Assembly: GCA_046539175.1 (NCBI GenBank)
Contig: JBKHHL010000004.1
Location: forward strand, 1-32,000
Origin: Desulfosudaceae bacterium
GTDB taxonomy: Bacteria; Desulfobacterota; Desulfobacteria; Desulfobacterales; Desulfosudaceae
Direction of reading: 5' to 3'
Length of the DNA stretch: 32,000 nt
The position numbers and the translations under genes were made by a program. The notes under the pieces are model-generated. The model saw nothing but the letters and a program-made list of their open reading frames with translations, was not told the origin of the DNA and did not search any database. Below are positions 35 to 13,312 of the stretch, piece after piece (within the stretch, counting starts at the first letter, position 1; each line of letters starts with the position of its first letter).

Positions 35-56
35 TTCATGAAATATCCGGGTTAAG
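35..56 (-). repeat. Dispersed motif copy e (CTTAACCCGGATATTTCATGAA on the minus strand)
   Basis: Near-identical to the copies at 5836-5856, 5553-5573 and 30887-30909. It supplies the last codons (NPDIS) and the TGA stop of rSAM-1. Confidence 0.8.
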
Positions 57-1310
57 GGGCCTGCCGAAGGCCTGGTGGATCAGGTCTCTTCTTCTGGGCC
101 GGTAGCTTTTGTCCGCTTTTTCTTTTCGCATGACAGTCTGGAAGAGTTTCGACATGCGGACCTGCTGGGAATCTTCCCGGTAAAACGTGTCCCAGGCATA
201 AAACAACAGCTCCTGCAGGCGCTCCGGTGCCATCTGTTGCGGCTGATAGACGACCTTGTCCGCCGTATAATCATTCCAGTCATACGAAAAGATTCTTTTT
301 TCCGCGTGAAGCTTTTTAAAAGCGGGCGTATGGGGAAAGGGCGTTAAAACGGTGAATTCAGCCAGATCCAGTTCGATTTCCAGCAAGAAATCAATCAATT
401 CTTTTATAAAATCCTCGGTATGCGAATCCAGGCCCAGCAGAATGGTGCCTTCCACCGCGATGCCATGATCGTGGTAACGCCGGATGCGCTCTTTTATATA
501 ATCCGAGGTATCAAAGACGGCCTGATAAACATACCAGGCGCCGGCCTGCGCGGCCAGGTCCAGTACTTCCGGCTGATCTTCAATGGGATGGCAGCACCAT
601 TTCTTCTTTAATGGAATCATTTCCCGGAAAAGATCTTTTTCCCACCGGGTGTCCTGCGCCAGGGAGTTGTCCACCAGGAACAGCCGGTTGTTATCAATGG
701 CGGCCATTTCCTCGATCACCTTGTCAATCGGGCGGGGACGGAATTTACGGCCACCCAGATACGCCACGGCGCAGGGATAACAGTTGAAACGGCAGCCGCG
801 TGAGGCGTGAACCAGATCCACCATCTGGATGCCCTTGTAGTTGTAGAGCTGCCTTTTAAGAATATCTCTGCGGGCCGTCCCCACCAGTTCGATGGGGGGA
901 TGGTCGGATAGATGATCGTAGACTTTCCGAAGACGATTGTTCCTGAAGTCATCGAACACTTTTTCCAGGTGCCCCTCTGATTCCCCCAGGAAAACGGCAT
1001 CGGCGTGCCGGCTTGTTTCTTCCGCGTGCAGCATGGTGGCAATGCCGCCAAAAATCACCGTAACACCTTTTTGCCGGTATGTATCGGCGATTTCCCAGCC
1101 CCGCTTTACCTGACTTGTCAGCATCATGGAAATACCGACCATATCGGTCGGCCGGCTGAAGTCGATCTCCTCCAGATTTTCATCGACAAATTCAACCTCA
1201 ACGTCCGCCGGCAGGGAAGCGGCCAATACGACCGGACCGTGGGGCGGAAGATGAAATTCCGTCTGGCGGGCCAACTTCGGCCATCGGGGATAAATCAGGG
1301 TAAACTGCAT
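36..1310 (-). CDS. B12-binding-domain radical SAM enzyme (rSAM-1)
   Basis: 424-aa ORF. An N-terminal B12-binding-type Rossmann region (DMVGISMMLTSQ...VTVIFGG) is followed by the radical SAM cluster box SRGCRFNCYPC (CxxxCxxC). The ATG lies 22 nt after the ACP stop and has an AAGG SD. The stop codon lies inside a copy of the dispersed motif. Confidence 0.85.
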   Translation of the reverse strand: MQFTLIYPRWPKLARQTEFHLPPHGPVVLAASLPADVEVEFVDENLEEIDFSRPTDMVGISMMLTSQVKRGWEIADTYRQKGVTVIFGGIATMLHAEETSRHADAVFLGESEGHLEKVFDDFRNNRLRKVYDHLSDHPPIELVGTARRDILKRQLYNYKGIQMVDLVHASRGCRFNCYPCAVAYLGGRKFRPRPIDKVIEEMAAIDNNRLFLVDNSLAQDTRWEKDLFREMIPLKKKWCCHPIEDQPEVLDLAAQAGAWYVYQAVFDTSDYIKERIRRYHDHGIAVEGTILLGLDSHTEDFIKELIDFLLEIELDLAEFTVLTPFPHTPAFKKLHAEKRIFSYDWNDYTADKVVYQPQQMAPERLQELLFYAWDTFYREDSQQVRMSKLFQTVMRKEKADKSYRPRRRDLIHQAFGRPLNPDIS

Positions 1311-1332
1311 GAAATACCTTGCGAAAGAGACT

Positions 1333-1608
1333 TTAGTTTTTCGAAGCGGTCGATTCCGAACGGTTTTCCCGAATATACGCGGTAAGCGTTTCTACGGAAG
1401 CAAAAACCTTTTCACCCAGTTCCTTATTGTCTATAACGATACCATAATCCTGCTCGATCATCATCACCAGCTCAAGGATATCGATTGAATCAATCCCCAG
1501 ACCCTCGCCGACAAGAGGTGCTTTCTCGTCGATATCTTCCGGGGCTATATCCTCCAGGTAGAGGGTATCAATTATTTTTACCTTGATCTCTTCTATGAAC
1601 TCCTGCAT
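1333..1608 (-). CDS. Dedicated acyl carrier protein
   Basis: 91 aa from the ATG at 1608, which has an AAGGG SD 9 nt upstream; the track ORF starts at a TTG at 1626. The phosphopantetheine-site motif is GLGIDSIDILELV (a DSL-type serine). The protein is acidic and has the helix-rich length typical of ACPs. Confidence 0.85.
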   Translation of the reverse strand: MQEFIEEIKVKIIDTLYLEDIAPEDIDEKAPLVGEGLGIDSIDILELVMMIEQDYGIVIDNKELGEKVFASVETLTAYIRENRSESTASKN

Positions 1609-1626
1609 GAAAATTACCCTTGTCAA

Positions 1627-1742
1627 TTCAATGTATTTATTTTATAAAAGGTAAAATTACCATGCGACAAGATGCAAGTCAATCTTCTTTCTAACCCGGA
1701 CTTTTCATGAGTCAACTTGATAATTGAATTCCAGAGCAGAAT
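1627..1742. promoter_or_regulatory. Divergent control region between the ACP-rSAM-1 and hotdog-FabG units
   Basis: 116-bp AT-rich spacer between divergently oriented starts. It contains a motif copy (1691-1713) and a GATAAT hexamer at 1719-1724. No clean -35/-10 pair could be assigned. Confidence 0.4.
1691..1713 (+). repeat. Dispersed motif copy b (CTAACCCGGACTTTTCATGAGTC)
   Basis: Shares CTAACCCGGA and TTTCATGA with the other copies. It starts about 50 nt upstream of the ATG at 1743. Confidence 0.65.
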
Positions 1743-2174
1743 ATGGGAAATACTCTTTTTGCCGTTGAAGACTACGTCATCCAGCGCGAACGCATGATGC
1801 TCATTAATGCCATTGATCAGGTTGACGAACAGGGCGCCGTTGCCCGCTCAACCACAACAGATTTGTGGCCTCTTTTTAAAAACGGTGCTATCAATCCGCT
1901 GGTCATTGTCGAACTGGTGGCGCAGACATCCGGGATCAGCTTCCGATGGTCAGAAACGCAAACCCGTCCCGGTGAAAAAGCAGAAGGGAGCGGTTTAATC
2001 GTGGGGCTCAAAAAGGCCGTTTTTTTTGTTGACGCCATTCCGCTGAAAGCAACTGTTGTCACTTGCTCGACAAAAGATTATACCTATATAAATTACGCCG
2101 AATACAGCGGCTTTTCCAAAATCGGGGAGGAAAGACTGGGCGAAGTTACCCTGCAGGTTTTAAGAACAGACTGA
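1743..2174 (+). CDS. FabZ-like hotdog-fold protein (dehydratase partner subunit?), histidine-free
   Basis: 143 aa. LFKNGAINPLVIVELVAQTSG aligns by eye to the FabZ active-site stretch [23 protein letters not shown]. The Glu-x-x-AQ is kept but His is replaced by Ala, and the whole protein contains no His. It sits immediately upstream of FabG. Confidence 0.6.
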   Translation: MGNTLFAVEDYVIQRERMMLINAIDQVDEQGAVARSTTTDLWPLFKNGAINPLVIVELVAQTSGISFRWSETQTRPGEKAEGSGLIVGLKKAVFFVDAIPLKATVVTCSTKDYTYINYAEYSGFSKIGEERLGEVTLQVLRTD

Positions 2175-2198
2175 AAAAATATGAAAGGGGGCCATCCC

Positions 2199-2921
2199 AT
2201 GGGAGAAAAGACAGCCCTGGTTACCGGCGGCGGCCGCGGCATCGGACGGGCGATCTCGCTGGAACTGGCAAACCACGGGTATCATATAACCATCAATTAT
2301 AAATCCGGTCGGGAAGCGGCTGCTGAAACACTCGAAATGATCCGGCAAAACGGGGGTGAGGGAAGCACGGTCGGCTTTGATGTAACCGATCCGGAGGCAA
2401 GCGGGCAAGCGCTTGACGAAATTGCCAAAACCTTCGACATCGAAATTCTTGTCAATAATGCCGGCATCACCGCCGACGGCCTGTTTATCATGATGCCGCA
2501 GAAAGACTGGCAGTCGGTAATCGACACCTCCCTGGCAGGTTTTTACAATGTAACCCGACCGGTAGTCAAAAAAATGCTCCGGAAAAAAACGGGGGCGGTT
2601 GTCTCCATATCTTCAGTTTCCGGGATTGTGGGCAACCGCGGACAAGTCAATTATTCCGCTGCCAAGGCCGGCATAATAGGCGCGAGCCGGGCGCTGGCCT
2701 CCGAGGTGGCGCGACTGGGAATAAGGGTCAACGTGGTGGCCCCGGGACTGATTAAAACGGAAATGATTAAGGACGCGCCGGTGGATGAGATCAAAAAGAT
2801 CATTCCCATGGCCCGCGTCGGCCAACCCGAAGAAGTCGCCAGAGTGGTCCGCTTTCTCTGCTCCGAGGACGCCTCTTATATTACCGGAGAGGTTATTTCG
2901 GTCAACGGCGGTATGGCGTAA
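2199..2921 (+). CDS. fabG: 3-oxoacyl-ACP reductase (SDR, FabG family)
   Basis: [15 protein letters not shown] is a TGxxxGIG cofactor loop. NNAG is present, as is the catalytic YSAAKAG (YxxxK). The start is placed at 2199 (AGGGGG SD) rather than the track start at 2181. Confidence 0.9.
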
Positions 2922-3187
2922 CGACCGTTACGGCAAAATTTTCACGAACCGGAGGCGGTATTTCTGGTTGCATAACCGCCCCGCCGTAATATAAAATATT
3001 ATTCCGCCAGCTCACATGACAATTCGTAATTTAATAAGCCGGACAAAAACATTACAACTTTAAGTTCCTTCTCATATACGAACATCCGGTTTCATGACAC
3101 GAAAATCAACGATGCTGTTGAAAGCGTGGTCTTTCAATAGCCAGACCCCGGACAAGACAAACAATAAAACCAAAAGGAGGGGGAAAA

Positions 3188-3616
3188 ATGAAAAAGAGCA
3201 TGTATGTCTGCGCGATTTTAATGGGTTTTTTGTTTCTGATGGCGTGCAGTACGGCCTTGACCAAGGCGGATATCGATCCCTGGCTGCAGGAGGTCGCCGG
3301 GGACACGGAGGCGTCGATCAATATTGAGGGCCGTTGGCAGGATGTCAAGGCGGATCCCAATAACCCGTTCGGCTGGGGCAAAGGGCTTTTTGAACAGGAA
3401 GGGAATCGGGTCACTGGCTCTCTTGGCGACTACAAGATTGAAGGAAAAGTCAGCGGGGACACGGCTTACCTGGTCTTTCTTTCCGGAGGCGAGGTGTATT
3501 ACACCACTCGCCTGGAAAGACATGAAGACGATACCCTGCGCGGCGACTATTTTCATTCCGACGACAAGGAACAGAAACAGGGCCAGCCAATAGCCCTGGA
3601 ACGGGTTGAAAAGTAA
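3188..3616 (+). CDS. Lipoprotein of unknown function
   Basis: Signal peptide with lipobox (FLFLMAC at the end of MKKSMYVCAILMGFLFLMAC). A strong GGAGGGGG SD precedes it. No recognisable catalytic motif. Confidence 0.6.
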   Translation: MKKSMYVCAILMGFLFLMACSTALTKADIDPWLQEVAGDTEASINIEGRWQDVKADPNNPFGWGKGLFEQEGNRVTGSLGDYKIEGKVSGDTAYLVFLSGGEVYYTTRLERHEDDTLRGDYFHSDDKEQKQGQPIALERVEK

Positions 3617-3752
3617 TCCCGCGGCAAACAAGTTCTCCGGGCATCTGCCATGGGTCCGGGGAGCGATCCTGCCGCTGGTCTGTTTTTTTGCTGAGCGTAT
3701 CCGGCTGTCGGGCTCTTGCGCCCATCCAGCCGGAATTTTAACTTTGACGGGT

Positions 3753-3783
3753 GCCGCGGCCGAAGCGACAGCTTGGCCGCGGC
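3753..3783. terminator. GC-rich hairpin between convergent genes
   Basis: GCCGCGGCCGAAGC / GCTTGGCCGCGGC forms a 13-bp stem with one bulge and a GACA loop. It lies between the ends of 3188-3616 (+) and 3842-4930 (-). There is no clear U-tract on either side, so the intrinsic-terminator call is tentative. Confidence 0.4.
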
Positions 3784-3841
3784 GTTCTATCGGTGGCGAT
3801 TTGCCCACCGGCTGGCCGCGTCGCAGTCCTGGTTGATGTCT

Positions 3842-4930
3842 TTATCTTTTCAGATGCTCGAAATCGACCCCCCGGGAGCGGGCCCGCATATCAAACCATT
3901 CATCCTCGTCCTGGGGTGGAATCACCTGCTGATCCGCCGCCCTGGCTACCAGGGTAACGGCTTCCTCGGGACAGGCACTAACGCACAGACCGCACCCGAT
4001 ACACTGTGTTTCCGTCACCCGGTACCCCTCATCGGTCTGCCTGACGGCCCCGACCTGACAGCGCTCATCGGCGCAGATGCCGCATTCGGAGCAGAGATCG
4101 GCATCGATAACGGCGTAATAATTGGACCTGATTATTGTTGAGGCATCCAGCTCCCACTCATTGATGACGCGCAGCACACCACAGCAGCAGCCGCAGCAAT
4201 TGCAGATAAAGTCCTGGCCGTTAATCACGTTTCTCGCCAGATGGACCAGCCCGGCCTCCTCCGCCTGGTGCAGTATCTCGTAGGCCTCGGTCTTGCTTAT
4301 CTGCCGTCCCCAGGGATGATCGTCAAACACACCCGGAACCGGCGCCACGCCCAGACAGACCTCCATGGGCTTATCACAGCCCTTGTCGATCATGCGCTTC
4401 TCTTTTTTACAGATGCAGTCGTTGACGGCAAAATCAAGGCCCTTTTCAATGATAGCGGAAACGCGGTCGTAAGGCAGGGCCGACTGTGAATCGACCAGCT
4501 CCCGCTCTATGGGCACAGCTCTCATCAGGGGCGGTTCATGCTTAAAAAACGCCTCCCCGAAAAAGGGCATATAGGCCTCACACAGTTCGATAAACTCCCG
4601 ATCCATGCGATCGATCTGGAATTCATATAAACCGAACACCCAGGGCAGAAGCTTGTATATCTTTACGCCTTTCAGGTTGACGCCGAAGATCAGCCCCCGC
4701 TTCCACATAGTATCGAGTTTTTCATCCAGAAAATCTCTGGGAAGCCCCGTACGCTCGGCAATCTGATCAACATTTTCAAAATTCAACTTTAATCGGCAGA
4801 AGAGCTCCGCCTCTTCCGGTTCGAACATCTTTTTCAGCAGCTTGATTTCCACACCGCTCTCGGTTTTAGGATAACCGTTGGGCAGTGTATCCAGCACTTC
4901 GGCCAGCCGATGATAAACTGAGTCGTTCAT
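3842..4930 (-). CDS. Cys-rich iron-sulfur protein (2x[4Fe-4S] ferredoxin domain at the C-terminus)
   Basis: 362 aa from the ATG at 4930, which has a GGGAG SD 7 nt upstream; the track start at 4978 is a TTG. Cys motifs are CICKKEKRMIDKGCDKPMEVC, CNCCGCCCG, and two ferredoxin boxes, CSECGICADERC and CIGCGLCVSACP. Confidence 0.7.
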   Translation of the reverse strand: MNDSVYHRLAEVLDTLPNGYPKTESGVEIKLLKKMFEPEEAELFCRLKLNFENVDQIAERTGLPRDFLDEKLDTMWKRGLIFGVNLKGVKIYKLLPWVFGLYEFQIDRMDREFIELCEAYMPFFGEAFFKHEPPLMRAVPIERELVDSQSALPYDRVSAIIEKGLDFAVNDCICKKEKRMIDKGCDKPMEVCLGVAPVPGVFDDHPWGRQISKTEAYEILHQAEEAGLVHLARNVINGQDFICNCCGCCCGVLRVINEWELDASTIIRSNYYAVIDADLCSECGICADERCQVGAVRQTDEGYRVTETQCIGCGLCVSACPEEAVTLVARAADQQVIPPQDEDEWFDMRARSRGVDFEHLKR

Positions 4931-5047
4931 GGCGTGTCTCCCTTGGTTTACGGAGTATGGCGAGTCATTTACCGGCAATGTAAACGCCGTCCTGAATAAT
5001 TAGTAATGTATATCATATTTCCGACAAAACACCATCGTATATGAGAA

Positions 5048-5473
5048 TCAGTGGCATGACCGGTCATTGTTTAAGATCCGAACCCTATCGGGCGCGTGTT
5101 TTTCAACAAATATGCGGGCGAGCCATTTCAGCAGCGCTTTGAAATGATCCATCCCGGCCAGGGTCAGTCCAAACATGCACAAAAAATGCGCCACGATCCA
5201 GATAACCGGACCACTTATTATAATCAACAGGGGCTCACGGTTAAAAATGGCAAATACGCTTAAGGCGGTGATTACCGGCCAGCAGATGGCGTAGCTCACA
5301 GCGATACAGACAAGTCCGATGATCATCCTGCCGGAAGGCTTCTGACGGAAAACACTCAGATCGGCTTTTTCTCTTACGGCTTGAGCTACAAATCTGGTTT
5401 TCAATAACTGTCCGGCCAATCTTCTGGAAAAGCTCAAAAAAAAATCTCCTGTTCTGACGCTTGCAGCAGGCAA
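5048..5473 (-). CDS. Small integral membrane protein, unknown function
   Basis: Three predicted hydrophobic helices (IIGLVCIAVSYAICWPVITALSVFAIF, LLIIISGPVIWIVAHFLCMFGLTLAG). The start is uncertain: TTG at 5473 or ATG at 5326. Confidence 0.45.
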   Translation of the reverse strand: MPAASVRTGDFFLSFSRRLAGQLLKTRFVAQAVREKADLSVFRQKPSGRMIIGLVCIAVSYAICWPVITALSVFAIFNREPLLIIISGPVIWIVAHFLCMFGLTLAGMDHFKALLKWLARIFVEKHAPDRVRILNNDRSCH

Positions 5474-5494
5474 TCAGCCCGGAAACTTCATGAG
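5474..5494 (+). repeat. Dispersed motif copy c, variant (TCAGCCCGGAAACTTCATGAG)
   Basis: Shares the GCCCGG and CTTCATGAG halves with copy d and with the core motif. It forms an inverted pair with copy f. Confidence 0.55.
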
Positions 5495-5573
5495 TTTTTT
5501 GATATAAAATTGCCCTTATTCCGAAAATACGAAATGACGTCTTTCAAAAAATTTCATAAATGATCCGGGTTAG
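5495..5573. repeat. AT-rich repeat unit A (TTTTTTGATATAAAA...TTCAAAAAATTTCATAAATGATCCGGGTTAG)
   Basis: Aligns end to end with unit B (5713-5856), apart from a roughly 65-nt extra segment in B. The shared blocks are TTTTTTGATATAAAA, TTATTCC, AAAATGAC and TTCAAAAAATTTCAT.AA...ATCCGGGTTAG. Confidence 0.75.
5553..5573 (-). repeat. Dispersed motif copy f (CTAACCCGGATCATTTATGAA on the minus strand)
   Basis: Part of unit A. It abuts and overlaps copy d in inverted orientation (CCGGGTTAGCCCGG centre). Confidence 0.75.
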
Positions 5574-5590
5574 CCCGGTTATTTCACGAG
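5570..5590 (+). repeat. Dispersed motif copy d, variant (TTAGCCCGGTTATTTCACGAG)
   Basis: 16 of 21 positions match the reverse complement of copy g. It forms the left arm of an inverted pair enclosing 5591-5835. Confidence 0.55.
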
Positions 5591-5698
5591 TCGATTTGGG
5601 CCCGAGCCCCTGGCTCCACCTGCAAGGCGCAGGGCGCGAAGCTGTAGTAATCTACCGCGAGCGGCCTGCAACAAAGCAGCTGCGCCCAAGGTGACTCG
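5587..5698. other. GC-rich structured insert (candidate small RNA or mobile stem-loop element)
   Basis: About 112 nt of GC-rich sequence sits between two AT-rich repeat units. Nested complementarity can be read by eye: CGAGTC 5587-5592 / GACTCG 5693-5698, CACCT 5617-5621 / AGGTG 5689-5693, GGCGCAG 5626-5632 / CTGCGCC 5680-5686, and an inner hairpin GTAG-TAAT-CTAC at 5644-5655. I recognise no known RNA family. Confidence 0.25.
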
Positions 5699-5767
5699 CC
5701 CGAAGGGTGAAATTTTTTGATATAAAAATGATTTTATTCCACAAATCCAAAATGACAATTTGTAATT

Positions 5768-5795
5768 TTGGAATGACTACAAAATGCAATATAAA
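5768..5795 (+). promoter_or_regulatory. Candidate sigma70-type promoter facing the ligase operon
   Basis: TTGGAA (5768-5773), a 16-nt spacer, then TATAAA (5790-5795), about 170 nt upstream of the ATG at 5966. It lies in very AT-rich DNA, where such matches occur by chance. Confidence 0.3.
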
Positions 5796-5835
5796 TAATT
5801 TAAATGATGCAATAAAGTAATGATTTTCAAAAAAT

Positions 5836-5965: not shown

Positions 5966-7345
5966 ATGACGACTCTTGCCGAACAACTGGAGAAAATTGT
6001 TTCAGGTCCGCAACACCCCGGCCACGATTATATTTTATCAAAATACACATATGAAGATATATTTGCAATAGCCGGCACTTTGCAAAAACATTATTTTTCT
6101 TCCGAAAAAGCGGAGTCCATCTGTCTTTGCCTGAAGGACAAGGGTCTCATCGCGGCGGCTCTGCTGGCCGCTCTGACCCGCCCCGTCAAACTCATCATCC
6201 CCCATTTTTTTTCGGAATCCGTTCTTTGGGAAATGCATCAGGCGCACGCGTTTTCAAAGGCCCTGCTGGAAAAACCGGTTGATCTGCCTCCAGAGGTGGA
6301 AATCATTGTACCTGCCCGGTCCGCTTCAGACCGGACAAGGTTTGATAACTCCTTCGTTCGTCGCCCTGACAGCGAAATTGTCAAGCTTTTTACCGGAGGT
6401 TCAACATGTGTGCCCCGGATCTGGTCTAAAACCATCCGCAACCTGTTTGCGGAAGCGATTTATCACCGCGGGAAATTGCAGGTATCGCCGGATGATCGCT
6501 TCGCGGCAACCGTGCCGCCTTTACATATTTATGGTCTGTTATTTTCGGTTCTGACCCCGTTTGTCGCCTCTGCCTCAGTCATTGACGACGTATTGACCTA
6601 TCCCCACGAAATTCAAACCGCCATAAGCCGGAACCGGGCGAGTGTTCTTGTCAGCATCCCCCTGCATTATAAAATGTTGACTGAAATTACCTTCCAGCCG
6701 GGATCACTTCGCCACGCGCTTTCCTCTGCTGCGGAACTCGATACGGCAGTCGGTCGCTCTTTTTATGCCCAGACCGGTCTGGGGATTACGGAAATATTCG
6801 GCTCCACGGAAACCGGCGGCATCGCCTCGCGCCTGCACACTGAAGAAAACAAATATTTCAAACCGTTTGACTGCGTAGGATGGAAAACTACCGGGAATCG
6901 GCTGGCCATCCGCTCTGATTTCATATCACCGGAACTGCCGGTGGATGAAGACGGTTTTTTTATCACCAGCGATCGGGTAAAAATTCCGGCTGACGACGGC
7001 TTCGAACTGGCGGGACGGGCGGACCTGGTCGTTAAAGTGGCCGGCAAGCGGGTGGACCTGAATGAAGTAAAAAACGCCATCACCAGCATTCCGGACGTAA
7101 AAGACGCCGCTGTTATTTATGAAGCATCCGGCAACGGCAGGGGTGGCGAAATCCGCACACTGGTGGCAACCGATATGGACAGCGGGGAAATAAGAAAAGT
7201 CCTCCGGGGAAGCCTGCAAAGCTATGCCGTTCCACGCCGGATCAGAGTCGTCGATAAAATTCCCCTTTCTCCAGCTGGTAAATATGAAAATACCGAGATC
7301 AGAAAATTGTTGGAAGAGTGTTCAAACAACGAAAAACGAAATTGA
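5966..7345 (+). CDS. AMP-dependent synthetase/ligase (aryl- or acyl-acid adenylating enzyme)
   Basis: ANL-superfamily core motifs are present: TGGSTCVPRIWSKT (a degenerate P-loop-like A3), FGSTETGG (A5), and SDRV...GRADLVVKVAGKRVDLNEV (A7/A8), plus the C-terminal PLSPAGK lysine motif. Confidence 0.85.
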   Translation: MTTLAEQLEKIVSGPQHPGHDYILSKYTYEDIFAIAGTLQKHYFSSEKAESICLCLKDKGLIAAALLAALTRPVKLIIPHFFSESVLWEMHQAHAFSKALLEKPVDLPPEVEIIVPARSASDRTRFDNSFVRRPDSEIVKLFTGGSTCVPRIWSKTIRNLFAEAIYHRGKLQVSPDDRFAATVPPLHIYGLLFSVLTPFVASASVIDDVLTYPHEIQTAISRNRASVLVSIPLHYKMLTEITFQPGSLRHALSSAAELDTAVGRSFYAQTGLGITEIFGSTETGGIASRLHTEENKYFKPFDCVGWKTTGNRLAIRSDFISPELPVDEDGFFITSDRVKIPADDGFELAGRADLVVKVAGKRVDLNEVKNAITSIPDVKDAAVIYEASGNGRGGEIRTLVATDMDSGEIRKVLRGSLQSYAVPRRIRVVDKIPLSPAGKYENTEIRKLLEECSNNEKRN

Positions 7346-7375: not shown

Positions 7376-8857
7376 ATGGCTGCGGTAATGGAAAAAATTC
7401 CTCCTCAGGACAGAAAACGTATCGTTCTGGTGCAGCCGCGGGGGTTCAACTGGTTCCCGGGCGCCCGGGATATGACTGATATCGCCAACCGCATGGTGCC
7501 CCAAGGGATTCTCTCCATCGCGGCCTATCTTATACGGCAGGGCCACGTGGTTTTTGTTTACGACTGTCTCGGTCCCGGCGCCCCGCTGCGCCTGGATGAC
7601 CAGGTCAAAGCAATTCTGAACTTTAAACCCGGCCTCGTCGGGTTTTCCGCCACGACATCCTCCTTTCCCGACGCGGCCGAACTGGCCGGAAAAATTAAAG
7701 AACGCGCTCCGCGTGTCGTGACCGCGGGGGGCGGCGTGCATGTTTCAGCGTTGGGCGAAAAACTGCTCTCCATGTATCCAGTCTTTGATTACTTCTGTCC
7801 CGGAGAAGGCGAAATCACAATGGCGGAACTGGCCGGGGGGCACCCCCCGGAATCTATCCCGGGGTTAATCCGATGGCAGGATTCCCGGGTCGTCACCAAT
7901 CCCCCCCGCCAGAAAATAACCGAACTCGACACACTCCCTTTCCCGGCCTACGACAGACTGAAAGGCTTTCCCCGGCACTATCATCTGCCTCTTTTCAGCT
8001 ATATCAAGACCCCGGGAGCGACCATGATCACCTCCCGGGGGTGCGTGTACCAGTGCTCTTACTGCGATCGTTCCGTTTTCAAAAAAGGCTTCCGCTACAA
8101 CTCCGCTCTTTATATCTACGAACACCTGCGCCATCTCCGAACACGTTTCGGCGTCCGCCACGTCAATATCTACGACGACCTGTTCACGTTTGACCGGAAA
8201 CGCGTCGTCGAACTCTGCGAAAAGCTGACCCGCCGTCCCCTCGGTGTCCGGTTCAACTGCGCCGTCCGGGTTGGACACACGGACAACGACCTGCTCCGGA
8301 TGCTGAAGGAGGCGGGCTGCCTGATGGTTTCCCTGGGCATCGAATCGGCGGACCCGGAACTTCTGAAAATCCACAAATCAGGCGTAACTCTGGAGGAAGT
8401 CCGGGAAACAGTGGTCCGCATCCAGCAGGCCGGACTCCGGGCCAAGGGCCTTTTCATGATGGGCCTGCCGGGTGAAACAGAAGAGTCCATTCGCAGAACT
8501 TCTGATTTTATCATGTCTCTCGGGCTGGACGACATGAACATGGCCAAGTTCACTCCCTTTCCCGGAGCGCCCCTGTGGTCGACCATCCGGGAAGCGGGTT
8601 CCTTCGACGAAAACTGGCGTCTCATGAACTGTCTGAATTTTACTTTTATTCCCAAAGGGATCCCCTCAAAAGAAAGGCTGGATTTTCTCTACAATGAACA
8701 TGTCAAACGGTTTTATTCCGATCCCGAATGGCGCCGGAAATTCACAAAACGCCTGTGGCAGCACCGGAAAAGCCTGCTCTATTTTTTGCGCCACCTGCCT
8801 TCTTTCCTGGCGGCCCGGCGTCAATTCGAACCGACGGAAAATCGTGCCTCAAATTAA
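7376..8857 (+). CDS. B12-binding-domain radical SAM enzyme (rSAM-2)
   Basis: 493 aa. The N-terminal B12-type domain reads RIVLVQP...GLVGFSATTSS...VVTAGGGVH. The radical SAM box is SRGCVYQCSYCD. AAGGAAA SD. It starts 30 nt after the ligase stop. Confidence 0.85.
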   Translation: MAAVMEKIPPQDRKRIVLVQPRGFNWFPGARDMTDIANRMVPQGILSIAAYLIRQGHVVFVYDCLGPGAPLRLDDQVKAILNFKPGLVGFSATTSSFPDAAELAGKIKERAPRVVTAGGGVHVSALGEKLLSMYPVFDYFCPGEGEITMAELAGGHPPESIPGLIRWQDSRVVTNPPRQKITELDTLPFPAYDRLKGFPRHYHLPLFSYIKTPGATMITSRGCVYQCSYCDRSVFKKGFRYNSALYIYEHLRHLRTRFGVRHVNIYDDLFTFDRKRVVELCEKLTRRPLGVRFNCAVRVGHTDNDLLRMLKEAGCLMVSLGIESADPELLKIHKSGVTLEEVRETVVRIQQAGLRAKGLFMMGLPGETEESIRRTSDFIMSLGLDDMNMAKFTPFPGAPLWSTIREAGSFDENWRLMNCLNFTFIPKGIPSKERLDFLYNEHVKRFYSDPEWRRKFTKRLWQHRKSLLYFLRHLPSFLAARRQFEPTENRASN

Positions 8858-8899
8858 GGGGGAGGTATCCGCATCAAACACATACTGATTTTTCTCCTG

Positions 8900-9691
8900 G
8901 TGCTACTGGCATCCATAAAACCGGCAGCGGCGATTGACGATAAAAAACCGCTCCTGGAAGCAGGTCTCGGCGCGGCCTGTTTATCCCTGCCTGATTATCG
9001 CGGAGCCGACAGAAGCCGCCTCTACGTCCTGCCCTTTCCTTACTTCATCTACCGGGGCGATTTTCTGCGTGTGGATGAGGACCTTGTTTCCGGACGCCTT
9101 TTCGAAACGGACCGGGTCCTGCTGGATGTCAGTTTTTTCGGAAGCCTGCCCGTCGAGAGCGATGGGAATTCGGCCCGGCGCGGTATGCCCGATCTCGATC
9201 CGACCTTCGAGGTCGGCCCGGCTCTGGACATAAGTCTTCTGAAAAATTATCGGGATCGCTATGAACTGTCTGTAAACCTGCCTGTCCGGGCGGTTTTCTC
9301 GACGGATTTCTCCTCCATCCGACACCGGGGCTGGTCCTTCAGTCCGCGGCTCAACTTCGAGGCCAGAGACATTATTGCCGATTCCGGCATCGATTTCGGC
9401 CTGTCCGCGGGACCGTTCTTCGCCGACGACGCGTATCATGATTATTACTACACCGTCAAACCCGCCTACCAGACAGCGTCAAGACCGGCCTACGACGCCG
9501 GAGGCGGTTACAGCGGTTCAACACTCAGCATAGGCCTGAAAAAAAGACTGAATTCATTTATCCTGCATGGTTTTATCAGCATGGACGACCTTAGTGGCGC
9601 TGTCTTTGAGGACAGCCCTCTCGTGAAGACCAGGTACTCTTTCATGGGCGGTTTTACCATTACCTGGATCTTCTTTAAATCGGACGGGTGA
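8900..9691 (+). CDS. MipA/OmpV-family outer-membrane beta-barrel protein
   Basis: LEAGLGAACLSLPDYRGADRSRLYVLPFPYFIYRGDFLRVD is typical of the family. Amphipathic strands alternate and the protein ends in an aromatic-rich terminus. The signal peptide (IKHILIFLLVLLASIKPAAA) extends upstream of the GTG at 8900, so the true start is probably a non-canonical codon near 8873. Confidence 0.7.
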   Translation: MLLASIKPAAAIDDKKPLLEAGLGAACLSLPDYRGADRSRLYVLPFPYFIYRGDFLRVDEDLVSGRLFETDRVLLDVSFFGSLPVESDGNSARRGMPDLDPTFEVGPALDISLLKNYRDRYELSVNLPVRAVFSTDFSSIRHRGWSFSPRLNFEARDIIADSGIDFGLSAGPFFADDAYHDYYYTVKPAYQTASRPAYDAGGGYSGSTLSIGLKKRLNSFILHGFISMDDLSGAVFEDSPLVKTRYSFMGGFTITWIFFKSDG

Positions 9692-9742
9692 CCCGGACGG
9701 CAGTAATTTTTAGGAATTCATATTGTTTAATGGAGGCGGAAC

Positions 9743-10384
9743 TTGAAAGAAATCAAAAAAAAGCGGGGCCGCCGGGCGGCATTTTTCCTGGCCGCGATTA
9801 TGGCTGGTTGTTTTTCTTTGACAGGATGGGCGGATGATCTGAACGGCATCAGAGATAAAGCGGAAACCATCAACTCCATAGAGGCGAATTTCATCCAGGA
9901 AAAACACCTGGAGATTTTGAAGGAACCGCTGATTTCAAAAGGAAAGTTTTATTTTTCAGCGCCGCGGTCACTCCGCTGGGAATACCAGGAACCGGTCAGA
10001 AGCATTTTGCTGATGAAAGATGAAAGCATTCGCCGATATGCCGAAACGGGCAGTGATATGGTCGAAGAAAGGAGCCAGGGACTGGAAGCGATACGCGTCT
10101 TTCTCCAGGACATCAGCCGGTGGATGACAGGCGAGTTTGAGGGCAATCCGGATATAAAAGCGGAAGTAAAAAGCGACAATATAATTCTGTTGCGACCGAA
10201 GAGCGAAGAGATGGCCGGGATTATTCAAAAAATAGAGCTTAAACTAACCGAAACATCCGGTATTGTTGATACCGTAAAGATATATGAAGACCGGGATTCA
10301 TATACAGTTATTCGGTTTATTGATACAAAAATCAATCAAAGCATTGACGAAGCGCTTTTCGAACAGATAGATCCGAATGAATGA
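9743..10384 (+). CDS. LolA-like lipoprotein/lipid carrier protein
   Basis: Signal peptide followed by the LolA-family signature region IEANFIQEKHLEILKEPLISKGKFYFSAPRSLRWEY. TTG start with a GGAGG SD. Confidence 0.75.
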   Translation: MKEIKKKRGRRAAFFLAAIMAGCFSLTGWADDLNGIRDKAETINSIEANFIQEKHLEILKEPLISKGKFYFSAPRSLRWEYQEPVRSILLMKDESIRRYAETGSDMVEERSQGLEAIRVFLQDISRWMTGEFEGNPDIKAEVKSDNIILLRPKSEEMAGIIQKIELKLTETSGIVDTVKIYEDRDSYTVIRFIDTKINQSIDEALFEQIDPNE

Positions 10385-11141
10385 GACCCAAAGGAATGAA
10401 ACAATGATGTCCGATGGACCGGAAAAAAAGATCAACCGGGCGATCCGCCTGGGCGTGAGCGGCTTCCTGATTGTCTTTTTTATGTTTGCTGTGTCCGCCT
10501 GCGGAAGACTTGCTCCTGTGAAGCCGGCCTCTCCAACGATTCATGAAGATATCGACCGGTATTGCCGGAATTTTTTTCCGGAAAGCCCCCGGCAGTTTGT
10601 CCAATCTCTTACCGCCTACCTGCCCAACGATGAGATCAGCAACGCCATCGGGATCATTAATGTTTATCCGGAAACCGGGAAGATAAAATGCGTCATCATG
10701 GGCGTGGAAGGCGTGGTTATTTTCAGCGGGGAATATGACCGGGAGCCCGTCATTCACAAAGCCGTCCCGCCGCTTGATTCCATGAAGTTTGCCGGGGCCC
10801 TGTTCGAAGATATCCGGCTGGCTTTTTTACCGCCGGCCGGTCAGGTTATCCAAACCGGCACACTTTCCTCGGGGATACCGGTTCGCAGGTATGAGCTGAA
10901 CGAGGATAAGGGCTATGTCGACTTGATTTTCCCCGAAGAGGGACGCCTCAAGATTAAAAAATACAGCCGCCGGAAAAAACGCCTCAAAACCATAGACGCC
11001 TGCTACGCTCCGCGCTGCGAGTTCCTCTTTCCGGGAAAAGCGGGCGCCGGCCCGGTCAGGCTGGAAATTATCCATCACGGCATCCTGGGATATCGGCTGG
11101 AACTGATGCTGATAAGAACCGAGGCTTTACCGGCGGAATAA
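10377..11141 (+). CDS. Lipoprotein of unknown function (possibly the DUF3261-type lipoprotein seen in APE clusters)
   Basis: Lipobox FAVSAC after a hydrophobic signal segment. It overlaps the LolA-like stop by 8 nt. The family assignment rests on position only, not on recognised motifs. Confidence 0.5.
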   Translation: MNETQRNETMMSDGPEKKINRAIRLGVSGFLIVFFMFAVSACGRLAPVKPASPTIHEDIDRYCRNFFPESPRQFVQSLTAYLPNDEISNAIGIINVYPETGKIKCVIMGVEGVVIFSGEYDREPVIHKAVPPLDSMKFAGALFEDIRLAFLPPAGQVIQTGTLSSGIPVRRYELNEDKGYVDLIFPEEGRLKIKKYSRRKKRLKTIDACYAPRCEFLFPGKAGAGPVRLEIIHHGILGYRLELMLIRTEALPAE

Positions 11142-11150
11142 CCGCGCGAT

Positions 11151-11957
11151 TCATTGATTCCGCGTCATGACCGGCTGACCGATGATTTCGGAAAGAGGCA
11201 CGACTTTGAGTCCTTTTTCGGAAAGGCCTGTCATGATTTTTTCCATCTCATTAAGCCACTGTTCAACCTTGAAGCCGCGGGTTCCGGGGTGGACGTCATG
11301 CAGCAGCACCAGATCACCCGGCCTGATTTTTCCAAGAATTTTTTCCGCCAGCCTCCTGACGCGCCGATTGCCGGCATCGAAACCCCGGCAGCTGTAATGG
11401 ACGCAAATCAGTCCCCGCTTTTTCAACAGGGGGCCGAGCCCGGGGTTGACCACCCCGGCCGGAGGACGGAAGACCCGGGGCACGACCCCGGATTTTTTTA
11501 TCGCTTCCTGCGCGGAATCAATTTCCCGGGCAAGTTTTTTCATGGTTTTGAGCATGATAAACACATCGTGGCTGTAGGTATGATTGCCTACCGAATGGCC
11601 GGAGCGAATGATTTCCTCCATGAGTCGGGGGTTTTCTTCCGCTTTGCGGCCGGCAACAAAAAAAGTCGCCTTTATTTTGTATCGACCCAGCAAGGCCAAT
11701 AATAAAGGCGTTGTCCGCGGGTCGGGGCCATCGTCGAAGGTCAACGCCACAGCGGCCCTGCCGTTCGGACGACCGCGACTGACAACCGGCAGCAGCAAAC
11801 CGGTTCCGGGGAAAAACGCGGCGCCGGCGCAAACGGCAATAAATCCGGCCAGGATGACAATCGTCAGAAGCGGCTGGATAAAAAACAACCCCGCCGCCGC
11901 TATCCCGGCTCCAGGGCCGAGATAACCGGCCGTTATCATGCGGGACTTTTTGTTCAT
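11151..11957 (-). CDS. Membrane-anchored NodB-type polysaccharide deacetylase (CE4)
   Basis: Two N-terminal hydrophobic helices, then ALTFDDGPDPRTT (TFDDG motif 1) and HSVGNHTYSH (HxxxH motif 2). Its ATG overlaps the rSAM-3 stop (ATGA). Confidence 0.85.
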   Translation of the reverse strand: MNKKSRMITAGYLGPGAGIAAAGLFFIQPLLTIVILAGFIAVCAGAAFFPGTGLLLPVVSRGRPNGRAAVALTFDDGPDPRTTPLLLALLGRYKIKATFFVAGRKAEENPRLMEEIIRSGHSVGNHTYSHDVFIMLKTMKKLAREIDSAQEAIKKSGVVPRVFRPPAGVVNPGLGPLLKKRGLICVHYSCRGFDAGNRRVRRLAEKILGKIRPGDLVLLHDVHPGTRGFKVEQWLNEMEKIMTGLSEKGLKVVPLSEIIGQPVMTRNQ

Positions 11958-13312
11958 CGAATCAGATACTCCCAGAGGGGTCCGGTATGTCCCCTGTCAT
12001 GAAGCCGGGAAATAATTTTGGCCATGTCCTCCTCTACTGCTCCGGAAATCCAGTTGACGCGGTTTTCTGCCATCCGGCATACTGTCTGTTCAATGGATTC
12101 CAGGCTGATACCTTCCGGCCGGTAAAAAACGGGGGGCAAAAGGTCCTGGTCGCTGGCTATCTGTCCCGATTCAAGCGCCATGGCATGAAGCCGGGTATGA
12201 GGATAAACACGGATGCCGGCAAAGAAAAAACAGACCGATTGTTCCAGAGAAGCCGCCTTATCCAGGGTTTCCGCCAGCGTCCGCGGAGTTTCGGCGGGAG
12301 CGCCCAACAGGAAGAAATGGGCCGCCTTGAGCCCGGCCTCAATGGCCGCGCTGTGGGCGTTCAGAACGTGCCGAAAACGGAACGGTTTTTGATAATTTTT
12401 CAGGATCTCATCGCAAAGGGCTTCGGTGCCGAATTCGACATGCGTCATGCCCGAGTCTGCCAGAACCTTGAAATAATCGGCCGGCGGAGGGGTGGGAGCG
12501 ATATAAGCGCCCCAGGGAATAACCAGCCCGGCCTTTTTCATGTGCCGGGCCACTTCCAGGCTATGGTCATAATCGGAGTTAAAAACGGAATCCGTTATAA
12601 ACAGATACCCGGCTCCCGCGTTCTGAAGCATCAGGGCCGTCTCGGCGACTTCCCGCGGAGGTATCAGCCGCAGCCGTTGCCCTTCGATGTGAGGATAAGT
12701 ACAGTAGATACATTTGAAGGGACAGCCCCGCTTGGTCTGCAGATTGAGCATCCCCCCTTTTTTCAGATAATAATCAACATGGGACTGCCGGGGCGCGAAA
12801 CGCCTTTTCACCCCGCCTCCCCACGGTTGGGGAAAATATTCCGCCGGGGCCGGCCCGTTGCCGGCGATCACCCCCGCCATGTCGCCGGGATTGCCCCCGT
12901 TTTCATAAGCTTCCAGGAAAAGACCGAACCGTTCCCCTTCCCCGACGATACCGTAGTCCGCTTCGAGCGTTTGAAGCAATTGCCCGGGGAAAATGGTAAA
13001 ACCGCTGCCGCCGAGCACAATCGGCGCGGCAGTCACCGATCTGATGCGGCCAATCAATGATCGGTAACGGTCGATATAGCTTTTCGGACCCTTCACGTCG
13101 GTATTGTCGATATTGCGTATGGAGATGCCGATAATATCCGGAGCCGTCTTTTTGATCCGGTCGGACAGGCGGTCCTCCTCCCCGGCCCGGTTCAGATCGG
13201 CCAGAAACACCTCATGATCCGACTCAATCGCACCGGCCACATAATCTATTCCCAGCGGATAGACCGGGTAGGGACTTGTTTCCGTATTGGCGGAAATAAG
13301 AAATACTTTCAT
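11954..13312 (-). CDS. B12-binding-domain radical SAM enzyme (rSAM-3)
   Basis: 452 aa from the ATG at 13312, which overlaps the KS::CLF stop as ATGA; the track start at 13435 would overlap the KS gene by 126 nt. N-terminus MKVFLISANTETSPYPVYPLGIDYVAGAI; radical SAM box KRGCPFKCIYCTYP. Confidence 0.85.
   Translation of the reverse strand: MKVFLISANTETSPYPVYPLGIDYVAGAIESDHEVFLADLNRAGEEDRLSDRIKKTAPDIIGISIRNIDNTDVKGPKSYIDRYRSLIGRIRSVTAAPIVLGGSGFTIFPGQLLQTLEADYGIVGEGERFGLFLEAYENGGNPGDMAGVIAGNGPAPAEYFPQPWGGGVKRRFAPRQSHVDYYLKKGGMLNLQTKRGCPFKCIYCTYPHIEGQRLRLIPPREVAETALMLQNAGAGYLFITDSVFNSDYDHSLEVARHMKKAGLVIPWGAYIAPTPPPADYFKVLADSGMTHVEFGTEALCDEILKNYQKPFRFRHVLNAHSAAIEAGLKAAHFFLLGAPAETPRTLAETLDKAASLEQSVCFFFAGIRVYPHTRLHAMALESGQIASDQDLLPPVFYRPEGISLESIEQTVCRMAENRVNWISGAVEEDMAKIISRLHDRGHTGPLWEYLIR

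Follow-up and report, generated by a model that had tools for sequence, protein, structure and literature searches.

Are radical S-adenosylmethionine (SAM) enzymes regular components of the pathways by which anaerobic bacteria assemble lipid chains, or are their genes incidental neighbours? The question is raised by three genes coding for cobalamin-type radical SAM enzymes (rSAM-1, rSAM-2 and rSAM-3), which are scattered in an aryl polyene (APE)-like gene cluster in a metagenome-assembled genome (MAG) of the family Desulfosudaceae. The DNA analysed (the window) is a stretch of 32,000 nucleotides from contig JBKHHL010000004.1 of assembly GCA_046539175.1. The cluster spans positions 36 to ~24141 and is organized in three leftward and two rightward units; the window stops 35 nt beyond rSAM-1, and the source contig, 40.5 kb long, continues outside it. 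Comparison with related loci indicates that, very probably, the APE-like glycolipid pathway of anaerobes includes these non-orthologous enzymes, class-B in architecture, as integral and conserved components, and that the families of rSAM-3 and rSAM-2 are co-expressed with the ketosynthase (KS) and chain-length factor (CLF) that build the chain.

Three divergent radical SAM enzymes

The coordinates of the three genes and their cysteine boxes (SRGCRFNCYPC in rSAM-1, SRGCVYQCSYCD in rSAM-2 and KRGCPFKCIYCTYP in rSAM-3), as given in an initial annotation of the window, were reproduced from the map of open reading frames (ORFs) and their translations. The same holds for the neighbouring genes it had named, i.e., those for an acyl carrier protein (ACP), an AMP-dependent ligase, a KS::CLF fusion, a deacetylase and an Fe-S protein. 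The ACP stop and the rSAM-1 start are 22 nt apart, the ligase stop and the rSAM-2 start 30 nt apart, and rSAM-3 overlaps both the KS::CLF and the deacetylase genes by 4 nt (ATGA). The three proteins are not recent paralogues, as their pairwise identity is 22–25%, and their mutual divergence had been correctly noticed from the start.

All three proteins feature the CX3CX2C motif and match the B12-binding and Radical_SAM families of Pfam at different levels. Scores for the B12-binding domain (PF02310, cut-off 32.1 bits) are 62.9 bits in rSAM-2, 54.7 in rSAM-3 and 32.8 in rSAM-1; scores for the radical SAM domain (cut-off 29.5 bits) are 91.8, 69.8 and 26.1 bits, respectively. The matches of rSAM-1 are marginal, that to the radical SAM domain falling under the cut-off. 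A Rossmann-like N-terminal domain is visible in the structure models of rSAM-1 and rSAM-3. The NCBIfam lipid-biosynthesis family to which the initial annotation had pointed, TIGR04072 (cut-off 360 bits), includes rSAM-3 (405.3 bits) but neither rSAM-1 (42.4) nor rSAM-2 (94.2). None of the three belongs to the HpnJ family TIGR03471 (cut-off 577.6 bits), for which rSAM-2, rSAM-3 and rSAM-1 score 178.2, 74.4 and 49.7 bits, respectively.

The term cobalamin-type is an architectural statement and not a proof of the cofactor, because AprD4, which has a class-B architecture, binds no cobalamin (PMC12931638). Of the three enzymes so labelled at first, solely rSAM-3 carries a specific residue supportive of cobalamin use (R66), whereas the nearest solved relative of both rSAM-1 and rSAM-2 is AprD4 itself. 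A cobalamin riboswitch, considered as support for B12 use, was dropped, as no Rfam match to one was found in the window.

Among the best 120 homologues of each enzyme, identity ranges from 75 to 98% for rSAM-1, from 73 to 96% for rSAM-2 and from 53 to 100% for rSAM-3. The names attached to these homologues are Desulfobacterales, Desulfosalsimonas, Desulfatitalea, Desulforhopalus, Syntrophales, Smithella and Syntrophus; no anammox sequence is found among the matches listed.

Radical SAM genes in related clusters

Locus samples consisted of the 80 closest relatives per query. Loci of rSAM-1 were retrieved in a metagenome scan (80 loci at 74–84% identity), and loci of rSAM-2 in a scan of one genome per species (80 loci). 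The commonest architecture of the rSAM-1 loci features, from left to right, a leftward ACP, KS::CLF and rSAM-3 unit; a rightward unit in which genes for an ApeP-like dehydratase (DH), a ketoreductase (KR), LolA and a lipoprotein precede rSAM-1; a fourth B12-type radical SAM gene on the opposite strand; and a leftward unit in which the 4HBT thioesterase gene is followed by FakA::FakB, GT2 (a family 2 glycosyltransferase) and LpxL-like genes. The fourth family (rSAM-4) is made of proteins of ~494 aa, the best match of which is BchE (180 bits). Genes of this family adjoin or converge with rSAM-1 in 33 related loci (for instance, L122, 11350-12840 on the minus strand; L081, 7699-9183; L110 and L124).

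The combination of rSAM-1, rSAM-3 and rSAM-4 is found in 10 of the 25 well-flanked loci, that of rSAM-1 and rSAM-3 in six and that of rSAM-1 and rSAM-4 in five. Single loci feature either rSAM-1, rSAM-2 and rSAM-4, or rSAM-1 and rSAM-3 along with an unclassified radical SAM protein, and in the last two rSAM-1 stands alone. Hence, at least two B12-type families are present in 23/25 loci. Two to four such enzymes per cluster are the norm in this family, and the presence of three in the window, to which the initial annotation had drawn attention, is ordinary. One 213-kb contig carries homologues of rSAM-1, rSAM-2 and rSAM-3 (79%, 62% and 58% identity, respectively), and additionally rSAM-4, a fusion of a SPASM-type radical SAM protein with a hydrolase, a CrtD/phytoene-desaturase-like gene and PlsY. 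A compact version of the cluster, with rSAM-1, rSAM-3 and a matching gene order, is found in a cultured species, Desulfosalsimonas propionicica (GCA_013761005.1).

The initial annotation had made its proposal depend on synteny with KS and ACP genes in other genomes, and such synteny was found for each family. KS::CLF lies directly upstream of rSAM-3 in 25/27 related loci, with alignment gaps of mostly 6–20 nt. For rSAM-2, a KS match on the same strand ends less than 1.3 kb before the gene in 35 of the 57 loci with enough upstream sequence; in 9 further loci of the 57 the gene directly upstream is LpxL-like. In loci of at least 17 kb, rSAM-1 is accompanied by KS::CLF in 21/22 and by rSAM-3 in 15/22 cases, and KS::CLF, ACP, DH, KR and LolA are found together in ~20/22. 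Because each family recurs in like clusters on dozens of independent contigs, the co-location of the radical SAM genes with the cluster is not due to chance. Direct adjacency to core genes, also stressed at first, is a different matter. The KS::CLF to rSAM-3 order is conserved, whereas ACP precedes rSAM-1 in just 8/67 loci and the ligase to rSAM-2 order was found solely in a sister Desulfosudaceae MAG (L001); both are lineage-specific.

In the rSAM-1 set, the median identity to the window proteins is 76% for rSAM-1, 66% for KR, 56% for ACP, 53% for rSAM-3, 50% for KS::CLF, 48% for FakA::FakB, 39% for LolA and 38% for DH. In the rSAM-2 set, it is 74% for rSAM-2, 60% for GT2, 46% for FakA::FakB, 41% for the LpxL-like protein and 40% for MMPL. 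The choice of loci favours the query genes, but the genes compared come from identical genomes; therefore, rSAM-1 and rSAM-2 evolve much more slowly than their neighbours, which fits pathway-central enzymes better than optional decoration.

rSAM-3, a candidate TsrM-like enzyme

rSAM-3 matches TIGR04072, the equivalog-level family 'rSAM_ladder_B12', over its full length (model positions 1-443). The start at 13312 is that called by NCBI, and the TIGR04072 model begins at the same residue. The name given by the NCBI PGAP pipeline is 'lipid biosynthesis B12-binding/radical SAM protein'; a literature search found no paper on TIGR04072 or its name. The gene is translationally coupled to KS::CLF, and is followed by the deacetylase gene in only 4/23 loci.

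By sequence, the solved structure closest to rSAM-3 is that of TsrM. The rSAM-3 model (pLDDT 87.6, pTM 0.86) superposes on TsrM with TM-scores of 0.85–0.87, well above those obtained for MgmA, AprD4, CysS, OxsB and TokK, and a profile built from 32 members of the family aligns with TsrM over the B12 domain and the core alike (E = 1e-42). R66, N67 and D69 (motif R66-N67-x-D69) are invariant in the family, and R66 aligns with R69 of TsrM. E273 of TsrM is replaced by V243 in rSAM-3 and by Ala in most family members, and E236 by an invariant tyrosine (Y206 in rSAM-3).

In TsrM, R69 sits beneath the cobalamin, the unique iron of the cluster is ligated by E273, and E236 occupies a site between cluster and cobalamin at which an aromatic or hydrophobic residue is found in radical methylases; a hydrophilic lower face under the cobalamin, as in TsrM and OxsB, accompanies enzymes that do not perform radical methylation (PMC12931638). 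Because the lower-axial Arg is conserved, rSAM-3 is predicted to bind cobalamin as TsrM does. The replacement of Glu273 by Val or Ala would leave the unique iron free, so that rSAM-3 could cleave SAM to the 5'-deoxyadenosyl radical. Judging from alignment and model, rSAM-3 looks like a TsrM-type cobalamin binder, the cluster of which is free for SAM binding and cleavage.

rSAM-2 and the inserted block

The best NCBIfam match of rSAM-2, HpnJ, is accompanied by ApyD, BchE and a P-methyltransferase family, none of which reaches its cut-off. In the PDB, the best match by sequence is AprD4 (111 bits, over the radical SAM core), followed by TokK, which aligns over the B12 domain. Nearly all of the 80 related loci belong to Smithellaceae/Syntrophales (72–81% identity), in which rSAM-2 homologues are embedded in like clusters, with LpxL-like, MMPL, GT2, FakA::FakB and 4HBT genes. 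In one locus checked in detail (L013), KS, a separate CLF-like gene and the rSAM-2 homologue follow each other. The KS is 30% identical to the KS half of the window fusion, and the 332-aa CLF-like protein, which has no active-site Cys, is 29% identical to the CLF half. The same locus, located on the Smithellaceae chromosome OY820932.1, carries between the LpxL-like gene and the KS-CLF-rSAM-2 genes an ABC-2 exporter and two BtrH_N/DUF4872 proteins, homologues of ACP:aminoglycoside acyltransferase (L013 2799-7457).

Relative to the common architecture, the window features an inserted block (~3.8-9.7 kb), which comprises the genes for the small membrane protein, the Fe-S protein, the ligase, rSAM-2 and MipA and is located between KR, along with a conserved 142-aa ORF, and LolA. 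Gene order marks this block as the element with which rSAM-2 arrived in the window. The rSAM-2 to MipA order is found in 4/69 related loci, L001-L003 among them.

The initial annotation had suggested that the Fe-S protein (3842-4930) is a reductant partner of the radical SAM enzymes. Only one weak homologue (35% identity) was found in 165 related loci, which does not agree with such a general role; from this distribution, the protein is a lineage-specific accessory that is not co-conserved with the cluster, and it may donate electrons in this lineage. A weak match to a winged-helix domain was detected at its N-terminus.

rSAM-1

rSAM-1 has no membership in NCBIfam families (best score at most 60 bits), and sequence comparison with solved structures yielded insignificant matches only. 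In a library clustered at 50% identity, its orthogroup is essentially one cluster, with full-length representatives at 74% and 52%; below it, identity drops to 38% or less over hundreds of paralogous clusters. The structure closest to the model (pLDDT 74) is AprD4 (TM-score 0.64), followed by MgmA, MiaB, CysS and TokK. In relatives, rSAM-1 is usually the terminal gene of the DH-KR-LolA-lipoprotein operon, and the gene directly upstream is that of the lipoprotein in 52/67 loci. In terms of sequence identity, rSAM-1 is the most conserved and slowest-evolving protein of the cluster.

Proposed roles and alternatives

The reading that we favour as a whole, tentatively and with slightly more doubt than confidence, combines cluster membership with a chain chemistry. 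According to it, the window contains a representative of a large family of APE-like type II polyketide synthase (PKS)/fatty acid synthase (FAS) glycolipid clusters of strictly anaerobic Desulfobacterota, and the radical SAM enzymes would perform oxygen-independent radical steps on the ACP-bound polyenoyl or acyl chain during its assembly, rather than optional late decoration. With TsrM-like cobalamin binding, a free unique iron and SAM cleavage to the 5'-deoxyadenosyl radical, rSAM-3 would most likely methylate, by way of cobalamin, a carbon atom in the growing chain or in the aryl head, an assignment that is itself doubtful; next, and unlikely, would come a cobalamin-assisted radical rearrangement or cyclisation. 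For the enzyme coupled to KS/CLF, modification of the head sugar is about as unlikely, and something else accounts for the remainder. Non-methylating radical chemistry is more probable for rSAM-1 and rSAM-2, which are AprD4/HpnJ/BchE-like. GT2, the NodB-type deacetylase, the LpxL-like acyltransferase, FakA::FakB and the MMPL, LolA, lipoprotein and MipA set would together join the acid to an amino-sugar lipid anchor and export it to the outer membrane, by analogy with APE lipids.

Several points weigh against this reading. No product is known for any member of the cluster family, and no enzyme of the four radical SAM families has been assayed. Cobalamin binding is predicted only, and AprD4 is a case of like architecture without cobalamin. 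Adjacency to KS/CLF indicates co-expression, not a shared substrate, and the closest characterised relatives of rSAM-1 and rSAM-2 (AprD4 and HpnJ) act on amino sugars. As to methylation, a SAM methyltransferase domain is already present in the cluster, fused to the MMPL exporter, and the putative Arg at the lower face of the cobalamin somewhat disfavours a classical sp3 methylase for rSAM-3; the same residue would be compatible with a polar transfer of the methyl group to an sp2 or enolate carbon, as well as with a cobalamin-assisted rearrangement. The loci sampled are close relatives, and deeper diversity lies outside them. Finally, heterologous production of the homologous radical SAM protein of Cluster I of anammox bacteria failed (PMC10139942).

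The initial annotation had taken the chain, rather than the head-group sugar, as the target, and this was overstated. The radical SAM enzymes, especially rSAM-2 and rSAM-1, might act on the amino sugar of the lipid anchor after GT2 and the NodB-type deacetylase, either contracting its ring to a cyclitol, like HpnJ with hopanoid-linked glucosamine, or deoxygenating it, like AprD4 with paromamine. We regard this as unlikely, though it accounts for several features. HpnJ (178 bits) and AprD4 (111 bits) are the best family and the best solved relative of rSAM-2, rSAM-1 has AprD4 as its best match by fold, and the cluster includes GT2, an N-acetylhexosamine (HexNAc) deacetylase gene overlapping the rSAM-3 stop and an HpnN-like MMPL. 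A like logic is found in the hopanoid pathway, in which HpnI (a GT2) is followed by HpnK (a deacetylase) and HpnJ (a B12-type radical SAM enzyme). In the Smithellaceae versions, two homologues of BtrH-like ACP:aminosugar acyltransferases are encoded, and the lipid anchor of APEs carries GalNAc-phosphate-glycerol, with GalNAc/GalN-phosphate (bioRxiv 10.1101/2020.12.19.423268). However, the HpnJ score is far under the cut-off (178 versus 578 bits), the rSAM-2 and rSAM-3 families directly follow KS/CLF genes in most loci (35/57 and 25/27), the deacetylase is rarely found behind rSAM-3, and the six-gene set of anammox bacteria (ACP, FabZ, KS, CLF, PDH and radical SAM) lists no glycosyltransferase. 

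Action on the chain could also take the form of C–C bond chemistry. rSAM-3 would use the 5'-deoxyadenosyl radical, and cobalamin as an electron sink as in OxsB, for the cyclisation, cross-linking or rearrangement of the ACP-bound polyene, yielding carbocyclic or branched lipids by a logic akin to the proposed ladderane route. In the most far-reaching version, rSAM-3, with a TsrM-like pocket and an unblocked radical site, would act together with rSAM-1 to rearrange or cyclise the polyene as it is elongated. The place of rSAM-3 in 'rSAM_ladder_B12' at equivalog level speaks for this, as do the identity of the core set (ACP, DH, KS/CLF and B12-type radical SAM) with anammox Cluster I, the non-methylating pattern of a hydrophilic Arg under the cobalamin, and the occurrence in some relatives of a CrtD/phytoene-desaturase-like gene and of the BchE-like rSAM-4. 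Still, we consider it distinctly improbable, since the window has no phytoene-desaturase-like gene, no ladderanes were detected in Desulfotalea psychrophila, which has a syntenic cluster (PMC2649909), and no experiment ties these enzymes to cyclisation, in anammox bacteria or elsewhere. Very improbable is a passenger status, in which at least one of the enzymes, most plausibly rSAM-2 with its inserted module, plays no part in the product, or rSAM-1 has a broader cellular role. The insertion of the ~3.8-9.7 kb block would agree with it, as would the very high degree to which rSAM-1 is conserved, a level more typical of core metabolism; yet in essentially all loci with sufficient flanks the rSAM-1 homologues lie within a cluster of this type, and those of rSAM-2 in Syntrophales are likewise cluster-embedded.

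Gene content of the cluster

The genes of the cluster are listed in Table 1. Leftward units consist of ACP and rSAM-1; of the small membrane protein and the Fe-S protein; and, at the right end, of the aromatic ammonia-lyase, the 4HBT thioesterase, FakA::FakB, GT2, MMPL::methyltransferase, the LpxL-like acyltransferase, KS::CLF, rSAM-3 and the deacetylase, in order of transcription. Rightward units consist of the ApeP-like DH, KR and the 142-aa ORF, and of the ligase, rSAM-2, MipA, LolA and the lipoprotein. Scans for promoters and terminators in the window revealed nothing that alters the operon picture drawn from gene order.

Table 1. Genes of the APE-like cluster in the Desulfosudaceae window. 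Scores are in bits; L numbers denote related loci.
Gene product	Coordinates	Strand	Features
rSAM-1	36..1310	-	424 aa; divergent radical SAM, class-B architecture; SRGCRFNCYPC, CX3CX2C at C173/C177/C180
Acyl carrier protein, APE-cluster type	1333..1608	-	PP-binding; PRK09184 74.8 (cut-off 70)
ApeP-like hot-dog dehydratase	1743..2174	+	Precomputed PF22817 on identical protein; same family in L081 and L085 homologues
3-ketoacyl-ACP reductase, ApeQ/FlxB-like short-chain dehydrogenase/reductase	2181..2921	+	adh_short_C2 192; FlxB_rubin_SDR 318 (cut-off 340)
Conserved 142-aa protein	3188..3616	+	Frame of gene callers (L166); L085 homologue at 13422-13850; no family match
Fe-S protein	3842..4930	-	Fer4 families; CxCCxCCC ('CNCCGCCCG') and two [4Fe-4S] ferredoxin motifs
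Small membrane protein	5048..5437	-	129 aa as called; hydrophobic segments; homologues in L003, L081 and L159
AMP-dependent ligase, ApeH-like/4-coumarate-CoA-ligase-like	5966..7345	+	AMP-binding; TIGR02372 95 (cut-off 334)
rSAM-2	7376..8857	+	493 aa; class-B radical SAM, unnamed family; motif SRGCVYQCSYCD
MipA/OmpV-family outer-membrane protein	8900..9691	+	PF06629 144
LolA-like carrier, ApeL/flexirubin LolA2-like	9743..10384	+	PF03548; LolA2_flexi 111 (cut-off 125)
Predicted lipoprotein	10377..11141	+	Lipobox VSAC
NodB-type polysaccharide (HexNAc) deacetylase	11151..11957	-	Polysacc_deac_1 104, NodB 110, PdaB 122
rSAM-3	11954..13312	-	452 aa; TIGR04072; predicted TsrM fold; motif KRGCPFKCIYCTYP
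KS::CLF fusion	13309..15465	-	ketoacyl-synt N and C domains, Ketoacyl-synt_2; PRK09185 332
LpxL/PIM-type lipid acyltransferase, ApeD-like	15495..16409	-	Lip_A_acyltrans 63; conserved in both locus sets
MMPL/RND exporter fused to SAM-dependent methyltransferase, ApeM and ApeB-like	16420..19548	-	MMPL and Methyltransf_23/12/25; HpnN 70
GT2 glycosyltransferase, polyprenyl-phosphate HexNAc-transferase-like	19552..20349	-	Glycos_transf_2; PpgS 72, AglJ 66
FakA(Dak2)::FakB(DegV) fusion, fatty-acid-kinase-like	20368..22116	-	Dak2, FakA-like_M, DegV; YloV, DegV, FakA; family-conserved
4HBT-type thioesterase, ApeK-like	22113..22538	-	4HBT_2; YbgC/FadM family
Aromatic amino-acid ammonia-lyase, histidine/tyrosine ammonia-lyase (HAL/TAL) family	22573..24141	-	Lyase_aromatic 512

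The ACP is 91 aa long as called, also in loci L082 and L083, and its ORF reaches position 1626. A search of the putative dehydratase against Pfam with hmmscan gave no ApeP-like match, even at E = 1, and its assignment rests on the precomputed PF22817 match and on the recurrence of the family in two related loci. An ORF of 196 aa with a GTG start on the opposite strand (3218-3808, minus) was discarded; given the gene callers and the conserved homologue, it is probably a shadow of the 142-aa gene. Homologues of the ligase are found in L081, L143 and L152 (38–50% identity). The KS half of the fusion features Cys138, His269 and His304, and the CLF half has TGWG without Cys. The methyltransferase domain at the C-terminus of the MMPL exporter is of class I, and a like fusion is present in D. 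propionicica (L085 3844-6963).

FakA::FakB overlaps the upstream 4HBT thioesterase gene by 4 nt, and the pair is conserved in the cluster family, in one relative with PlsY. The pairing suggests that the acid, once released, may be activated again in the form of an acyl-phosphate; descriptions of canonical APE clusters include no such step. The ammonia-lyase, which probably marks the edge of the cluster, scores 430 bits for BagA/FevW TAL, 424 for HutH and 301 for FlxA, all under the cut-offs. At the selectivity position, ~60 residues before the ASG triad that forms the methylidene-imidazolone (MIO) group, it reads 'RFHGCG', which presumably fits none of the usual patterns of HAL, TAL and phenylalanine ammonia-lyase.

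Genes at 24.4-32 kb (EEP, GDPD, ACT, PaaK and CpsB) were rejected as cluster members, having no counterpart near radical SAM homologues elsewhere. Two of them, the ACT-domain protein and the phenylacetate-CoA ligase PaaK (28125-29872, minus strand; 627 bits versus a cut-off of 646; FlxY 200 bits), lie ~4.4 kb past the cluster edge. A phenylacetyl-CoA-ligase in synteny has been mentioned for Desulfotalea (Rattray et al., PMC2649909).

Significance

Radical SAM enzymes that act on fatty-acid or polyketide-type chains are almost unprecedented, and the TIGR04072 family, coupled to KS/CLF, belongs to the standard equipment of a very widespread cluster of ordinary sulfate-reducing and syntrophic bacteria. 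As some of the carriers are cultured, the ladderane radical SAM question could be tested outside anammox bacteria, which have no genetic system, and the value of the family lies in these hosts and in the specific residues available for probing chain chemistry. Its solution would define a new class of outer-membrane lipids and a further cellular use of cobalamin; such lipids might serve as biomarkers of anoxic sediments. Should cyclisation or rearrangement prove true, many Desulfobacterota would make undescribed carbocyclic or skeletally rearranged polyene glycolipids, and D. propionicica and similar strains would be tractable models for ladderane radical SAM chemistry. The cluster will not surprise specialists, as its type has been in the literature since 2009; what is new here is the predicted TsrM fold of rSAM-3, in which the cobalamin-facing Arg appears to be kept and the cluster-blocking Glu lost.

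Comparison with known systems

The arrangement is not new, and the cluster is of an already catalogued ('ladderane-type') kind. FAS-like clusters that include radical SAM enzymes are known from Kuenenia and are syntenic with clusters of Desulfotalea, Geobacter and Pelobacter (Rattray et al. 2009, PMC2649909), the enzyme family has a name at NCBI, and the antiSMASH 'ladderane' class of biosynthetic gene clusters was built on that report (PMC2649909). 'Ladderane' clusters and their expression have also been reported, without explanation, for Desulfobacterota MAGs (PMC9902471).

Cluster I of anammox bacteria comprises six genes (kustE3603-3608), coding for amxACP, amxFabZ, a KS/CLF-like heterodimer, a phytoene-dehydrogenase homologue and a cobalamin radical SAM enzyme; the literature holds no experimental link of this cluster to ladderanes. 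The window shares with it the ACP, the hot-dog dehydratase, the KS/CLF pair and a radical SAM enzyme, rSAM-3, over the curated cut-off. In contrast, the host is a Desulfosudaceae of the sulfate-reducer type and not a planctomycete, KS and CLF are fused, and a full APE-type set of attachment and export genes is present. No Amino_oxidase/CrtI-type match indicative of a phytoene-dehydrogenase-like gene was found in the window, whereas one is present in L081. Ladderanes are not expected from the window cluster.

The clusters of D. psychrophila (DP1853/DP1855), Geobacter and Pelobacter are of a like kind, come from the phylum-level group to which the host of the window belongs and contain several radical SAM genes. 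The radical SAM families, their coupling to KS/CLF and the relation to APEs were not worked out in the 2009 report, and the window adds the Syntrophales-type rSAM-2/MipA module. In locus L081 (2274-6478, ERZ21831104:ctg96876l), a CrtD/phytoene-desaturase-like gene, a fusion of a SPASM radical SAM protein with an alpha/beta-hydrolase and a UDPGT-like glycosyltransferase, all absent from the window, form a block resembling the SAM-GT-SAM-phytoene-dehydrogenase block described for Desulfotalea and Kuenenia; DP1853 and DP1855 may map onto rSAM-4 and the SPASM protein of L081. Polyunsaturated hydrocarbons are found in D. psychrophila (Rattray et al., PMC2649909). The cluster was considered as their source and then set aside; such hydrocarbons are explained by Pfa/Ole pathways, though this is not confirmed for that species, and the link was given no weight.

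The E. coli APE gene table lists no radical SAM genes, as the initial annotation had stated for canonical clusters, and the word 'radical' does not occur in the paper (PMC8253772). Nearly all functions of canonical APE and flexirubin clusters (E. coli apeA-R, Flx) are found in the window. They include KS and CLF, a PRK09184-type ACP, an ApeP-like DH, an FlxB-like KR, an adenylating ligase and a methyltransferase, along with the attachment and export set, i.e., an LPLAT-type acyltransferase, a glycosyltransferase, a thioesterase, a LolA-like carrier and an MMPL exporter; the ammonia-lyase is shared with flexirubin clusters. The window adds the three radical SAM enzymes, FakA::FakB and the NodB-type deacetylase. 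ApeR (second KS), ApeI (second DH), ApeF (second or tandem ACP) and ApeG (COG4648-type) were not found among the ORFs of the window, beyond which the contig extends.

Among characterised enzymes, TsrM (tryptophan 2-C-methyltransferase, PDB 6WTE/6WTF) shares with rSAM-3 a three-domain fold and the Arg predicted under the cobalamin. The two proteins are ~21% identical, and Glu273, which blocks radical SAM cleavage in TsrM, and Glu236 are replaced in rSAM-3 by Val/Ala and Tyr, respectively. The substrate of TsrM is a free amino acid, whereas that of rSAM-3 is probably a carrier-bound lipid. The best family and structure matches of rSAM-2, HpnJ (hopanoid cyclitol-ether formation) and AprD4 (aminoglycoside 1,2-diol dehydratase), act next to glycosyltransferase or deacetylase steps, on lipid-bound or free amino sugars. 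Membership scores are far under the cut-offs (178 versus 578 and 117 versus 500 bits, respectively), and, unlike HpnJ and AprD4, the enzymes of window-type clusters have KS/CLF and ACP as genomic partners.

The sole established radical SAM precedent for the stepwise modification of a ketoacyl chain during ketosynthase extension is Jaw5, a class C cyclopropanase, and for chains of the fatty-acid or polyketide type a 2026 review names just two radical SAM enzymes, Jaw5 and the hypothetical ladderane enzyme (PMC13459092). Jaw5 is HemN-like, uses two SAM molecules and no cobalamin, and works within a type I iterative PKS; its homology to the enzymes of the window is limited to the radical SAM core.

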